64,000 nt of DNA. It comes from Kofleriaceae bacterium (GTDB lineage Bacteria; Myxococcota_A; Polyangia; Haliangiales; Haliangiaceae). Position 1 is the first letter of the stretch, and every line of letters begins with the position of its first letter. The notes under the pieces are model-generated. The model saw nothing but the letters and a program-made list of their open reading frames with translations. It had not been told where the DNA came from and did no database searches. The stretch spans positions 28,774 through 92,773 of the forward strand of contig JBKJLC010000084.1 of the NCBI GenBank assembly GCA_046597055.1. The letters are read 5' to 3'. A program made the position numbers and the translations under genes. Shown here in pieces: positions 51,193-64,000 of the stretch.

Positions 51193-51879
51193 CTACCGCA
51201 GCAGACCGGCCAGCCGGAGCAGGCTCACGTGCGGCCCCGAGGCCAGCCCCGGGAGCTCGTCGAGGAGCGTCGCGCGCCGCGCGGCGACCGCGTCGTAGTC
51301 GTCGCGCGTGATCAAGATCCGCAGCACAACGGGTGGTGGCACCATCCAGTCGCCCAGGAATGCGAGGTCGCCCTCGGCGGTGATCGCGTCGAGTCGCAGG
51401 GTCACGAGGGCGGCGGCCCGCAGTCGTGCGTCGCCCGCGATCAGCTCGCACTTGAGCGCCTCAAGTACGAGGTCGGAGAGGCCGGCGTCGTCAGCGACCA
51501 GCTTTTCGCGCAGCTCCTCGTAGCCGAAGCAGACCCGGACCAGGAAGTCCCCGGCCCGCGCGCGAACCATGTCCGGCGCGTCGTAGAGCAGGCGCTGACG
51601 GTAGATCTCCATGACCTGCTCAGCGCACGTCTGCGCCCGCTCGAGGTCGTGGAGCGGGTAGACGCCGATCAGCTGGCAGCGCTCGAAGTCGAAGTAAACA
51701 AACGGACGCTCGATCAGCGTCCGGACACTGCAGTAGTGGCACTCAAACAGGTGCAGGTTGCGGTCGAGGACCTGCTGGCGCAGGGCGGGATGGCGGCCGG
51801 CGTTCAGGCTCTCGACGAGCTGCACGTGGAGTGTCTCGCCGCAGCGGCAGCGCAGGTCGTGGGCGACCGTGATCGACAT
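51193..51879 (-). CDS. CpXC domain protein
   Basis: CRCG...SLN...P.LRQQVL...LHLFECHYC...PFVYFD, later RVCFGYEELREK. Confidence 0.75.
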   Translation of the reverse strand: MSITVAHDLRCRCGETLHVQLVESLNAGRHPALRQQVLDRNLHLFECHYCSVRTLIERPFVYFDFERCQLIGVYPLHDLERAQTCAEQVMEIYRQRLLYDAPDMVRARAGDFLVRVCFGYEELREKLVADDAGLSDLVLEALKCELIAGDARLRAAALVTLRLDAITAEGDLAFLGDWMVPPPVVLRILITRDDYDAVAARRATLLDELPGLASGPHVSLLRLAGLLR

Positions 51880-52544
51880 CAGTCCTCGTCGACGCGCTCG
51901 CGCTTCTGGGTGAGCTCGCGGCGCTCCTCGGTCCAGCGCGGGGCGGCACCCTTGCCCAGGTGGAGGGTCCAGAACGAGACCGTTGTCTCCGACGTGTCGG
52001 CGGTGGAGTCTCCGGGGTGGATGTCCGGATCGCTCGGCGCCTGAAGGCGATAGGCCAAGATGAGGTCGAGATCGTGACCGCGCCAGTTGGTGCGCATCGA
52101 CAGCTCCGTGCCCTCATCGGTGACGTAGTACTCCGGCGAGCCGGCCGCGGCGTCCACCGGCGGGAACGCCCCGAACACGTACAGCAGGTCGGTGACGTCG
52201 CCCGCAGTGAGCGCGTGGTCGGCGTAGACGTCGACCGCGTCGAGATAGGGGCCGAGCTTGGCCAGGCCGCCTCCGTCGGTGACTTTGCCGTCGTGCACCA
52301 GGACCCAGCTGGTCCCCGGCAAGGCGGCGTCGAACAGGAACGGCAAGCGCGGGTTTCCCTCGCGCACCTTGTCGGGCGGCGCGTGGTGGGTAACCTCGGC
52401 GTGGTGCTCGGCGATCGCGCGCGCCTCCGCCCACTGGCTCGGCGTGGCCTTCACGTCCGGGGCTCCACGGCACGCGCAGGCGACCAGGACGGCGAGCACG
52501 AGGGTCGATGCAACGTGGTCACCAGGGGAAGGGTGGACGGTCAT
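51879..52544 (-). CDS. hypothetical lipoprotein (candidate immunity/partner protein)
   Basis: LVLAVLVACAC lipobox-like signal. Overlaps the upstream gene, and its stop overlaps the CpXC start (TGATG). Confidence 0.7.
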   Translation of the reverse strand: MTVHPSPGDHVASTLVLAVLVACACRGAPDVKATPSQWAEARAIAEHHAEVTHHAPPDKVREGNPRLPFLFDAALPGTSWVLVHDGKVTDGGGLAKLGPYLDAVDVYADHALTAGDVTDLLYVFGAFPPVDAAAGSPEYYVTDEGTELSMRTNWRGHDLDLILAYRLQAPSDPDIHPGDSTADTSETTVSFWTLHLGKGAAPRWTEERRELTQKRERVDED

Positions 52545-54180
52545 GATGGTTGCCAGCGCCGCCCGAAGGCGCGGCGTCGAAGTCGGGTTTCATGATCGCA
52601 TCGGGATCGAGGTACTTCGCCGTGTGCAGCTCGTCGAGCTTCTGCTTCGTCACCGCGTCGAGCCCGTCGCCGGAGCGGTTCAGTCGGTGATAGTGGGCGT
52701 ACTGCTCGGCGAACCACTCGTACGGCGATGACATCGAGTAGCTGGAGACCCGCTGGCGGTGGGCCTCGGCGTTGTAGGAGCACAGCGATTCGCTGGCGCG
52801 GGTCAGGAACACGTAGACGCGATCATCCTCGCCGATGTTGGCGTCTCCTGCGAACTTGTAGAGGCCCTTGCGGTCCTCGCCGCGCATCACCCGGTCCCAG
52901 TACTTGGTCAGCTTCTGATCTGCGTAGTGCTTGCGGATGAACGCGTCGACGTCCTGGACCTTGCGGAAGCCGGGCGTGGTGACCTGGTACGGCTTGCCTG
53001 CGATGCGGTGAGCCATGTACTTCCGCGCCTCGCTGGCGTCGAGCACGTCGGCTTGGTCGCCGAGTTGCTCCCACACGCGCTGCTTCAGGTCCCCGTCGCT
53101 GCCCCACAGCCCCTTCGACCAGTCGTCCTCGCTCGTCCCGGTCTGCCAGCCCACGAAGGGATGGCTCATGGTCCAGGCGTTGCCGTCCAGCTCCTGGCCG
53201 ACACCGTGTCCCACCTCGTGCAGGACGCCGACATCGAAGTGGTTGATCGCGTTGCCGCCCTTCTTGCCGCCGCCGGTCATGTTGTGGTCGGTGCCACCAC
53301 CGTCCCTGGCCGAGGTCGAGCTCTCGTTGAGGATGACGTGCCGGTCGTGCCACCAGGCGTTGCGGAGCGGCTTCCACTCGGTGGCGGTGCGCTCCTTCTC
53401 CTCGAATCCGATCGCGAAGTCTTTCACGGTGCGGGCGTGCTGGAGCGGCAGGTTCTCCGAGATCTGCGTGTAGAGCCGGTGGATCCACTCCATCTTCCAC
53501 GGGCGCGTGCGGACGAGCGTGGGGTCGTAGGCGTCGTCGCGCAGCGGCGCGTAGAGGTGCGCGAAGAGCTTCTTCGCGACCTCCATGTCGTCGTAGGTCA
53601 TGACGACCTTGCCGACGCTCCTGGCTTCCTCCTCGTTCATCGTATCGCGGGGGGGAAGCGTCCCCAGAAAGTCCTGCCACAGGACAGGGTGGCGGGCGAT
53701 CGACGCCAGCCAGTCATTCTGGGCTGACTTGTCGCGGAGGATCGCGCGCAGCAGGTCGGGGCGGTCACCAAACGTCAGGCCGGTGTCCGCCATGATGGTG
53801 AGGAGATACGTGCCCAGCACGCGCTTGATCTGTTCGAGCTCACGCTCGATGGTCGCGCCCTGGGACCATCGGATCCGCTGGGCGGGCGCGACCGTGTGCC
53901 AGGTCTGCATGGCCCGCTGACGGTCGCTTGCATCGAGTGCGGCGCGAAACGCGGCGATGTCGTCGGAGATCTCGGTCGGTTCCGCTGGTCGCAGGTTCTC
54001 CGGCAGACCGCCGTCCAGATTGAGCACCCTGGGGCGCATCGACAGATCGGCGGGGACGGGCGCATCCTTTTTCTGGACGATGCCCTGGGTCACTGTGCGC
54101 TTGCCAGCCGCCGTCGCGCGGCCGCCGCTGGCGCCGCTGCTGGCGGCTTCGCCGCCCGGCCGGTGATCCTTGGGCGCCAT
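52519..54180 (-). CDS. zincin metallopeptidase, candidate secreted effector/toxin
   Basis: Low-complexity N-terminus with GKRTVTQ..VQKK, LHEVGHG, VSSYSMSSPYEWFAE. No signal peptide. Confidence 0.75.
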   Translation of the reverse strand: MAPKDHRPGGEAASSGASGGRATAAGKRTVTQGIVQKKDAPVPADLSMRPRVLNLDGGLPENLRPAEPTEISDDIAAFRAALDASDRQRAMQTWHTVAPAQRIRWSQGATIERELEQIKRVLGTYLLTIMADTGLTFGDRPDLLRAILRDKSAQNDWLASIARHPVLWQDFLGTLPPRDTMNEEEARSVGKVVMTYDDMEVAKKLFAHLYAPLRDDAYDPTLVRTRPWKMEWIHRLYTQISENLPLQHARTVKDFAIGFEEKERTATEWKPLRNAWWHDRHVILNESSTSARDGGGTDHNMTGGGKKGGNAINHFDVGVLHEVGHGVGQELDGNAWTMSHPFVGWQTGTSEDDWSKGLWGSDGDLKQRVWEQLGDQADVLDASEARKYMAHRIAGKPYQVTTPGFRKVQDVDAFIRKHYADQKLTKYWDRVMRGEDRKGLYKFAGDANIGEDDRVYVFLTRASESLCSYNAEAHRQRVSSYSMSSPYEWFAEQYAHYHRLNRSGDGLDAVTKQKLDELHTAKYLDPDAIMKPDFDAAPSGGAGNHHDRPPFPW

Positions 54181-54266: not shown

Positions 54267-54764
54267 TCAGCGGCAGCGCTGGTCCGTACACTGCGGCTCG
54301 CAGCTGCCAGGACCGCACCGCCGCGGGAGCCGGCAGCCGGTGCTGCGGAACCGCGCGGCGAGGTCGTTCAGCGCCCGGGCGCTGGTCGCGTCGGTGATGC
54401 CCGCGCACTGCGGCGAGTCCACGATCGACGTGAAGCAGCCGCAGTCGTCGGCGGTGGTGCACGCGCCCTTGGCCGCCGCGAGTCGCTGCTCGAAGGCCGC
54501 GGTCAGGTCGCTGCCGGTCGAGGCTGCCGCGGTCGGCCGGCTGGCATCCGGCGCGGTCGCGCGGGCGGGGCCGGCGTCGACCGGCGTGGCGGCCCCGGCG
54601 TCGATCGCCGTGGTGGCGCCGGCGTCGATCGCCACGGCTGATCCGCTCGCGACGCTCGCGCCGGTGGGGGCACGCTTCAGCGCGCGGTCGGACCGGCGCT
54701 CGTCGCCGCCGCTGCGCGCGCACGAGCAGAGGACCGCGATCCACAGCAGCGATGCGCGCGTCAT
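54267..54764 (-). CDS. Cys-rich lipoprotein
   Basis: VLCSC lipobox, repeated IDAGA linker, CTTADDCGC...C...C...C domain. Confidence 0.7.
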   Translation of the reverse strand: MTRASLLWIAVLCSCARSGGDERRSDRALKRAPTGASVASGSAVAIDAGATTAIDAGAATPVDAGPARATAPDASRPTAAASTGSDLTAAFEQRLAAAKGACTTADDCGCFTSIVDSPQCAGITDATSARALNDLAARFRSTGCRLPRRCGPGSCEPQCTDQRCR

Positions 54765-62718: not shown

Positions 62719-63307
62719 TCACCGGTCGGGAACGTCGTGCGGATTCCCTGCCTGGATGTTTTCCATCTTCCAGGTGAGCGAGTACGCACTCGAGATTGTC
62801 AGTGTTGCTTTCTGCAGAGTGAGGAACATCTCACTGCCGTGGCGTCGCCGGCTGGTAGGCACCCAATGGATGGTCAGCTTCGCCGAGCCGCGGCCGTACT
62901 CGAGGCGGGGCTGATGGCCGGGCGGCGCGGTGTCGGCCATCACGCCGATCTGTTTGTTTACTGACCGCGTCGTGTAGTCCTTGTTGTGCCTTCGTGAAGG
63001 CGCCAAAGTACGTGAGCAGCTGCAGCACGTCGTCGACGCTGTAAGTGCGCGCTTCCAGGAACCGCGCCGCCTTGAGCAGCGACCCGAGCGTCTTGTTCGA
63101 GCGGGCGTTCTTCAGGAACACCTTGCCGCCGACGACGACCGCGCCGCTCGGTGTGCCGCTCGGGCTATCATCGTCGATGACGAAGGAAAAGTTCGAGAAC
63201 TGGCGATCGGAGGCGCGCCCGATCGGCCCGACCTTCAGGCCCTTGCTCTTGAGATGGGCGCGCAACGTGGCCTCGTCGCTGTCGGCCGCCGTTGTGGGGT
63301 TCGTCAC
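62719..63307 (-). pseudogene. frameshifted homolog of the 51879-52544 lipoprotein
   Basis: VVVGGKV..TLGSLLKA..SVDDVLQLLTYFGAF aligns to VLVHDGKV..KLGPYLDA..TAGDVTDLLYVFGAF. One extra base near 62989-62990. Confidence 0.55.
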
Positions 63308-64000
63308 GCGATCATCCGCGCGCGCCCTCTGCCTCGATGGCCATCGCCGGCGCCAGCATGTCAGGATGGTACCGTGGACGGTGAACGACCGGCGTCGGGG
63401 GGCATGCATGAGCGAGGACACGCACCTATGATGGTCGGCCGCTGCTGCATGGCCGCGGTCGCGGCCATCACCGCCGCGACGTCGAATGGCTGCGCGGTCG
63501 TCATGAGGCCGCCACCAGGAGAGTGCGCCGGCCGACACGTCGCGATCGTCGATAAGGTCGGGGCCACCGCTGCTTTCACGCTCACGGTCCTCGGGTTCGT
63601 CGGGGGGGGGAGGGGGGGATCTTCGGAGTCGACGACTCACCCAGCGAACATGGCGTGCGTGACCGCGTGATCATCTTAGGTACGCTCGCTGCCACCGGTG
63701 TTGGGTTCACGGCATCGGCGGTGTACGGGGGGCGCGCGCGGCGGCGCTGCCTTGCGAAGGTGCCGTCGCCGCCGCCGCCGCCGTTCATCCGCGCCTTCGA
63801 CCAACCACCACGCCCGCGCGTGCCCACGTGAGCCTGGCCGGCTCGAACGTGCCAGCAGCAGCGGTTGGGCCCGACGGGAATCCAGCGCCGGGCCGCTGTC
63901 GTCGTCTCATGCTGTCCGCCCACCGGACAGAACCCAACTGGGTGGGCAAGACTCGTCGACGGTGCAAGGCCTGGTGGCCATCGCGTCAGCGCAGCGTGGC

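Follow-up and report, generated by a model that had tools for sequence, protein, structure and literature searches.

The zincin-lipoprotein-CpXC operon

The stretch of DNA analysed here (the window, 64,000 nucleotides from a Kofleriaceae bacterium) carries a minus-strand operon of three overlapping genes, which encode a predicted zincin protease, a predicted lipoprotein and a protein of the Pfam family CpXC. The zincin gene (54180-52519, minus strand) encodes a 553-aa protein, P0001, a predicted cargo protease of an extracellular contractile injection system (eCIS) and of the ALF-metallopeptidase class. It overlaps by 26 nt the gene of the 221-aa predicted lipoprotein P0002 (52544-51879, minus strand), which in turn overlaps by 1 nt, in a TGATG arrangement, the gene of the 228-aa CpXC protein P0003 (51879-51193, minus strand). 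The host assembly (8.38 Mb, 72% GC; operon on contig C208) contains one zincin resembling anthrax lethal factor (LF) and one CpXC protein above the Pfam cut-off, and since both lie in a single operon, their pairing appears to go beyond chance. The zincin gene has a GC content of 66.7%, at about the 5th percentile among the genome's genes. NCBIfam and PADLOC searches gave no match for any of the three proteins, Atlas searches returned only CpXC clusters plus nameless clusters below 0.9, and a promoter scan of the operon found none, as chance alone would predict.

P0001 contains the zinc-binding motif HEVGH at residues 321-325 (53206..53220, minus strand; H321, E322 and H325) and a third-ligand motif, VSSYSMSSPYEWFAE, at residues 478-492. 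Within the latter, Y481-x6-E488 (52717..52740, minus strand) comprises the predicted catalytic tyrosine and third zinc ligand, roles that we presume by analogy with LF and PPEP. All five residues were invariant in the first 20 alignment rows; in the 51-row alignment, HExxH was kept in at least 90% of rows, while Y481 and E488 were fully invariant. A first search yielded 19 homologues, and a profile search extended the family to 533 representatives at E <=0.001, 37 of them at 1e-30; the catalytic motifs of the family were also present inside giant actinobacterial proteins (L071 and L072). No hydrophobic signal peptide was seen in the P0001 sequence, and neither a DUF4157 domain nor a VgrG domain was found in it with Pfam.

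The AlphaFold model of P0001, with a pLDDT score (predicted local distance difference test) of 79, is disordered at residues 1-70 (pLDDT <50) and 529-553. Between these ends it contains a helical domain (residues ~70-193; 53602..53973, minus strand), which resembled only generic alpha-solenoid and MgtE-N-like folds with Z up to 6.6, and an LF/PPEP-like catalytic domain (residues ~194-527; 52600..53601, minus strand) with an insertion of ~125 residues between HExxH and the tyrosine. The Glu-to-Tyr spacing is 159 in P0001 versus 35-36 in PPEP, the latter taken from PDB titles. A VIA fold search with the predicted model returned the LF catalytic domain (1yqy) as the best match, with Z 11.4 and a root mean square deviation of 4.3 over 173 aligned residues, followed by PPEP-2 (Z 8.6) and PPEP-3 (Z 8.5). 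Foldseek also ranked LF first, but with a non-significant E of 0.14, and PDB sequence searches gave no significant match, with PPEP-3 at E 0.54. After a low-complexity linker, P0001 ends in a conserved PFPW tail (52522..52533, minus strand; pLDDT <50), in which W553 was invariant in 20/20 rows, and an F/M-x(1,2)-W tail recurred in 41 of the 51 family members. Judging from the modelled fold and the conserved active-site residues, P0001 is very probably an active LF-like protease.

P0002 starts with a hydrophobic stretch ending in VAC23/ACAC25, which is lipobox-like by regular expression at Cys23 or Cys25. It had no Pfam match at E up to 0.1, and with its model (pLDDT 76) neither VIA at Z >=5 nor Foldseek at a threshold of E 0.001 gave a match; we made no use of faint cystatin-like similarities with Z of about 4.4. 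The P0002 family is the most divergent of the three: across 19 complete loci its median identity is 25%, whereas the zincin core reaches 31% and CpXC 43%, in a comparison that left out four frameshifted loci and loci that were short or lacked a gene. By eye, a lipobox or signal peptide was present in most members checked. In sister zincin subfamilies, non-homologous lipoprotein families occupy the position of P0002. A paralogue of P0002, split over two reading frames, lies ~9 kb from the operon (62722..63310, minus strand; GC 64%, 71% at third codon positions), with hidden Markov model (HMM) E values of 1.9e-9 and 8.5e-6 for its two pieces and an hhalign value of 73.5% (E 3e-5). Next to it, as far as the window reaches, neither a zincin nor a CpXC gene was seen, and it is a candidate orphan immunity gene, a remnant or an assembly error. 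In its divergence, its replacement between subfamilies and this lone broken paralogue, the lipoprotein behaves as immunity genes do, and we lean towards P0002 being an immunity protein, likely periplasmic.

P0003 matched Pfam CpXC (PF14353) with 67.5 bits (cut-off 25.4, E 1.4e-18) and no other Pfam family. The match spans residues 10-143 and is followed by a conserved C-terminal part, which makes P0003 a long-type CpXC protein. Of its zinc-ribbon cysteines, C47 and C50 were invariant and C11 and C13 were kept in at least 90% of 107 rows, and invariant basic and histidine residues outside the ribbon are numerous in CpXC. P0003 has neither an export signal nor a leader. We found no function for Pfam CpXC in the literature; the accessible part of PMC11090510 mentions only unrelated CPxC motifs. 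Elsewhere in the host genome, a weak second CpXC match (C255:9636-9878) lies in an open reading frame (ORF) similar in length to that of a 922-aa protein at locus L154 of genome G142, in which an N-terminal CpXC, a coiled coil and HEAT-like repeats were recognised by eye.

An earlier note on this DNA, made from the letters alone, had described three overlapping minus-strand genes, the first encoding a product with HEVGH, a third-ligand motif, a disordered N-terminus and an LF-like layout that had no signal peptide and no DUF4157, the second a lipoprotein and the third a CpXC protein; the coordinates, pLDDT values, Pfam scans, lipobox-like pattern and fold match to 1yqy agree with that description throughout.

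Linkage of zincin, lipoprotein and CpXC genes

To survey the family from the zincin side, 44 rows were reduced to 33 by dropping 11 duplicate loci and then to 24 by dropping nine loci with <1.8 kb downstream. CpXC lay within ~1.5 kb downstream of the zincin in 23 of these 24 evaluable loci. An adjacent gene of the lipoprotein family was picked up in 18 loci by an HMM built from P0002's own homologues only and in 22 by an HMM extended from the surveyed loci, which is partly circular; the lipoprotein gene sometimes lies upstream of the zincin, and both loci missed by the extended HMM are cut off upstream. The earlier proposal of a coupled trio is thus borne out for both partners. The module is patchy, as close P0001-family members (E <1e-69) occurred in 16 of the order's 147 genomes, a tally that includes the unpublished G038.

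CpXC matches were found in 120 of the 147 genomes (including the unpublished G037 and G038) and fell into two length classes. A reverse survey, in which loci were chosen by CpXC alone but the zincin HMMs were built partly from these same proteins, covered 64 long-type loci outside the set already gathered and 20 short-type loci, all among the matches listed, with 75 further matches outside the list. A zincin HMM match lay within 5 kb in 43 of the 64 long-type loci, upstream on the same strand in 33, convergent in nine and otherwise placed in one; with six zincins on extended flanks and five loci whose HExxH protein is divergent but has a Glu motif that matches, the count reached 54 of 64. The other ten comprised five contig edges, one member of the short clade, one case with the zincin 16 kb off and three with none. 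At the 20 short-type loci, a zincin was found in 0/20, and neither DUF4157 nor an ATPase was seen. This short clade (L136-L155) stands alone in many Kofleriaceae genomes and may represent an orphan guard, a target or a protein of unrelated function.

The linkage extends beyond the order and reaches several families and a second phylum. In other Myxococcota families, where CpXC matched in 18 of 201 sampled genomes (the window's own counted), a zincin accompanied 27 of 32 CpXC loci, 24 by HMM and three by motif. One genome of the surveys with seven long CpXC genes had a zincin nearby for all seven. CpXC proteins of the zincin family formed one clade in a quick tree (42 rows, including 38/38 family-labelled; support 100), and CpXC clades tracked zincin subfamilies. 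CpXC was also kept in four Burkholderiales loci whose zincins have neither DUF4157 nor the leader described below; these zincins (L068, L070, L073 and L075) have long Ala-rich N-termini and a CpXC gene directly 3', in genomes where the eCIS gene Pvc16 was not found. In the loci seen for the giant proteins of actinobacteria that share these catalytic motifs, no CpXC was present, and the toxin class therefore does not have this partner throughout. We attribute a suspected zincin-CpXC fusion in L059/L165 to an artefact of the reading frame and discard it. Complex prediction for zincin residues 68-553 with CpXC scored 0.00 in two runs, in a setting where the controls were not folded, and counts neither for nor against the pair. 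Overall, we modestly favour a role in which long-type CpXC binds and restrains the protease, as inhibitor or chaperone, in the producer cytoplasm.

Other genes recur around the module in relatives, namely one for a CxxCxxCC protein (22 loci, duplicates included), three families of 250-310 aa without names and a 2OG-Fe(II) oxygenase. They were seen in L036-L065 and L159-L168 (together clusters c3, c5 and c10) and in L096-L174 (c8 and c9), and none was seen by this operon. Just 5' of the operon, a gene at 54267-54764 (minus strand) encodes a predicted lipoprotein of small size whose C-terminus is rich in Cys; it had no Pfam match and is not among the recurring neighbours of the homologues.

Predicted eCIS delivery and rival explanations

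The first 45 residues of P0001 (54046..54180, minus strand; pLDDT 30-34) form a disordered leader that is likely an eCIS loading signal. It contains GKRTVTQGIVQKK at residues 26-38, starting with GKRTVT (residues 26-31; 54105-54088). In the host genome, a motif of the recurring form P/A-G-K-R-T-L/R-T lies upstream of the DUF4157 domain, an eCIS marker, in 18 of 26 DUF4157 ORFs, and these leader-bearing ORFs have differing C-terminal parts. We built a position-specific scoring matrix (PSSM) from the 18 leaders, excluding P0001; the P0001 leader scored 22.8 bits, within the leave-one-out range (median 21.5), and took second place out of 6,386 called genes without DUF4157. The genes at ranks 1 and 4 also end in toxin-like motifs, one that we take to be JAB-like and an HExxH motif. 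Two loci, L222 (C41:1937-6280, plus strand) and L223 (C259:26706-27998, minus strand), encode proteins with a GKRT-type leader, no DUF4157 and no Pfam match, one ending in a JAB/MPN-like E...HVHP...S..D and the other having HExxH, and are candidate further cargo.

Within the zincin family, DUF4157 is fused to 19 of 51 aligned members. The P0001 clade (14 rows, support 99 in a quick tree) has no DUF4157 and is nested among DUF4157-bearing rows; because the tree was midpoint-rooted, a loss of the domain in this clade is only inferred. The leader was kept in 11 of 12 full-length members of the clade. The resemblance to leaders of DUF4157 cargo that the earlier note had pointed out holds for the host's own ORFs, but the leader is lineage-specific, with the pattern present in 7 of the 19 DUF4157-bearing family members and in 0/23 zincin genes of other Myxococcota families, for which start calls were rough. 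In the accessible parts of the literature, Geller 2021 (PMC8213781) and a machine-learning paper of 2024 use DUF4157 to mark eCIS cargo, and report immunity genes and a conserved signal sequence to be lacking, the Pvc15 paper groups cargo signal peptides by similarity, and the AlgoCIS preprint (10.64898/2026.05.27.728243) describes a disordered N-terminus needed for loading and a dispensable DUF4157.

An eCIS locus is present on contig C74, with Pvc16_N, sheath, tube, CIS_tube, GPD, base_V, gp25 and baseplate J genes. The host genome also encodes four full-length Afp15-like WHD-AAA ATPases, all outside the C74 operon, and in relatives this ATPase family adjoins Pvc16 in 10 of 20 eCIS loci. Tube-like PF06841 genes also lie away from the C74 operon, at C286:8165-9106 and C252:25382-26323. 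The earlier note had suggested a check for co-occurrence with eCIS and type VI secretion (T6SS) loci; the former has its locus here, whereas the T6SS sheath VipB had no match in the 94% complete genome and a T6SS route for P0001 is unsupported. Taking leader and genome content together, P0001 is in all likelihood eCIS cargo.

Lipoprotein genes next to eCIS cargo are not confined to this operon. In the host, a regular expression found a lipoprotein-like gene 3' of 6 of the 16 DUF4157 genes with a same-strand neighbour, versus a background of 12% (p ~0.009). Such pairs were located at C221, C157, C158, C264, C98 and C208:8659 and, by eye, also at C129 and C78; the lipoproteins look mutually unrelated, and the pairs, mostly without known toxin domains, are candidate toxin-immunity pairs.

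We propose that the operon encodes an eCIS-delivered LF-like zincin toxin guarded by a lipoprotein in the envelope and by CpXC in the cytoplasm, and give this full mechanism a probability of about 0.55. The protease, which by its sequence has no Sec signal, would be kept inactive or soluble by CpXC in the producer. An Afp15/Pvc15-type AAA+ ATPase encoded elsewhere may then read the GKRT leader and thread the zincin into the tube of the C74 eCIS. Once injected, the zincin would cleave envelope or periplasmic proteins of rival bacteria, a target suggested by the predicted envelope location of the partner lipoprotein, and the lipoprotein would shield kin from the incoming enzyme. A broader generalisation is more tentative and in our estimate falls short of even odds: long CpXC proteins as a family may be dedicated inhibitors or chaperones of LF-fold proteases, with a two-compartment guard and GKRT-signal loading into eCIS without DUF4157. 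If that is true, the stand-alone short CpXC genes would be orphan guards or the natural target.

Several observations weigh against the two-guard eCIS mechanism. The zincin operon lies on C208 and the eCIS genes on C74, with no Afp15-like ATPase gene beside the operon in the window. Pvc16 occurs in 124 of the 147 genomes of the order (including G037 and G038), so that co-occurrence with eCIS is little informative; it was not found in G126, which has the closest module and is 92% complete, nor in the four Burkholderiales genomes that carry zincin-CpXC pairs; one of these four has eCIS-type tube genes. These Burkholderiales pairs also have no lipoprotein gene between the two genes. Guards in two compartments would be unusual, given that the VgrG2b C-terminal domain was harmless in the E. 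coli cytoplasm, according to the accessible part of PMC6899460. The leader resembles the Walker A motif, and the third PSSM rank went to a P-loop, which shows the limit of the motif; moreover, the regular expression used for training was written after P0001 had been seen. The linkage itself has exceptions: L159 is the sole zincin locus without an adjacent CpXC, a CpXC of the same clade lying 16 kb off on its contig; no zincin was seen in the long-type loci L105, L114 and L173 despite full flanks, nor at 5 of the 32 CpXC loci outside the order. Convergent genes in 9 of 43 loci mean that zincin and CpXC are not co-transcribed there, and as related loci inherit gene order, the linkage counts are not independent events. 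Finally, in 14 of the 64 long-type loci CpXC abuts or overlaps a same-strand ORF for an Afp15-like ATPase, within 63 nt in 11 of them.

Because of this last arrangement, the main rival is a reading in which toxin and lipoprotein immunity are the same but CpXC serves as an adaptor specific to this cargo, passing the zincin on to the Afp15-like ATPase. The ATPase is present in 26 of the 64 long-type loci, and the loci where CpXC abuts it include some with the zincin on the opposite strand. CpXC is also the most conserved gene of the module, and adaptors tend toward high conservation. However, the genome has one long CpXC against about 25 ORFs for DUF4157 cargo, this operon has no ATPase gene next to it, and CpXC is kept in Burkholderiales whose zincins have no leader and no DUF4157, Pvc16 being not found in 4/4 of the genomes. 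We regard the adaptor role as unlikely, though it fares best among the rivals.

The other two readings, an anti-eukaryote target and a substrate or signalling role for CpXC, are less likely. In the former, the zincin would be eCIS cargo directed at eukaryotes such as protist grazers or fungi and act in the cytosol as LF does, with CpXC as the sole guard and the lipoprotein otherwise employed. The nearest fold is indeed that of a eukaryote-directed toxin domain, some relatives have annexin domains, and the cytoplasmic partner is retained where the lipoprotein is not. Yet a common fold reveals no target, and PPEPs, which have the same fold as LF, cut bacterial surface proteins. The exported partner is moreover kept or swapped in most Kofleriaceae subfamilies, and the lone P0002 paralogue lies apart from the operon, in the manner of orphan immunity genes. 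Zhang et al. 2012 (PMC3482391), in the part available, note that many toxins of Photorhabdus virulence cassettes (PVC) come without immunity genes and may hit distant organisms, which is in keeping with a eukaryotic target; on balance we consider such a target improbable. We find it about equally hard to credit a non-weapon protease-substrate switch, in which the zincin cleaves or activates CpXC as a cytoplasmic regulator, with the lipoprotein as envelope sensor: a near one-to-one pairing of protease and zinc ribbon, the invariant basic and histidine residues of CpXC and the short clade without zincin would fit it, but DUF4157 fusions, the common leader, ATPase neighbours and the motifs in the giant actinobacterial L071 and L072 point to exported effectors, no membrane link joins lipoprotein and protease, and PADLOC gave no match.

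If the two-guard mechanism is correct, it would provide a testable function for the uncharacterised Pfam family CpXC and might yield a naturally occurring protein that inhibits LF/PPEP-fold proteases. It also bears on how producers survive their eCIS toxins, most of which have no recognisable immunity gene according to the accessible part of Geller et al. 2021 (PMC8213781). A natural DUF4157-less cargo clade with a short recurring leader allows a direct test of what the loading ATPase reads, and the about 25 DUF4157 cargo genes of the host represent a little-studied Kofleriaceae eCIS arsenal.

Comparison with known systems

P0001 most closely recalls the Tox-ALF-MPTase class. Zhang et al. 2012 (PMC3482391), as far as its text was available, describe ALF-like metallopeptidases as PVC/eCIS toxins, with Hoch_1736 of Haliangium ochraceum as an example and Imm-SuFu as immunity, and the seen part of PMC3894181 describes Hoch_1736 as combining DUF4157 and annexin with an LF-like protease at its C-terminus. 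In both families, an HExxH zincin with an LF-like fold, predicted in the case of P0001, forms the C-terminal part of eCIS cargo from deltaproteobacteria/Myxococcota. The comparison was made through P0138, a DUF4157-annexin-zincin protein of the same architecture as Hoch_1736 and not Hoch_1736 itself, to which the zincin profile aligned over 315 columns at 98.7%. P0138 is encoded ~2.7 kb from a long CpXC, and thus the CpXC partnership probably extends to this class. By contrast, the P0001 clade has no DUF4157, and its partners are a lipoprotein and CpXC rather than Imm-SuFu; 'CpXC' does not occur in the examined text of Zhang et al. 2012.

The order of a HExxH protease gene followed by a gene for an envelope-targeted partner, here predicted from sequence, is shared with VgrG2b C-ter/PA0261 and Tpe1/Tpi1. 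These are T6SS metallopeptidases with divergent envelope immunity proteins, lipoproteins in some species, and their periplasmic toxicity was shown (PMC6899460, seen in part). They differ in T6SS/VgrG delivery and in having no third, cytoplasmic partner, and P0001 is not assigned as a member. Anthrax LF and PPEP (1yqy, 6fpc and 9g0j) share with P0001 the predicted fold and the HExxH ... Y-x6-E layout, at 11-15% identity and with the ~125-residue insertion between HExxH and Tyr in P0001. Unlike anthrax LF, P0001 has no separate PA-binding domain and no signal peptide; in their stead it has a leader that is disordered, an N-domain of helices and the PFPW tail.

For delivery, the closest parallels are AlgoCIS Cgo1/Cgo2 and PVC cargo, whose loaders are Alg15/Pvc15 (10.64898/2026.05.27.728243; PMC11495950; PMC11297309), which in the parts of these sources available likewise combine a disordered N-terminal loading sequence with an AAA+ loader in the genome and a dispensable DUF4157. 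Their loading sequences are given there as poorly conserved or only groupable, whereas a short motif recurs here, and the host's cargo genes lie dispersed, apart from the eCIS operon. Relative to Pfam CpXC (PF14353) as a whole, the four-Cys ribbon is shared, but the long subtype tracks LF-like zincins and the short subtype stands alone.

We found no account of a CpXC-zincin partnership in the literature, although subscription journals, supplements and the rest of Zhang 2012 may hold one. The earlier designation as a new toxin/immunity module consequently needs dividing: the module is widely conserved, but its toxin class was already described by Zhang et al. 2012, and VgrG2b and Tpe1 are a tested precedent for zincins countered by an envelope or lipoprotein immunity protein. 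What appear to be previously undescribed are CpXC as a nearly constant partner, a set of partners spread over two compartments, and a leader that recurs in a clade without DUF4157.

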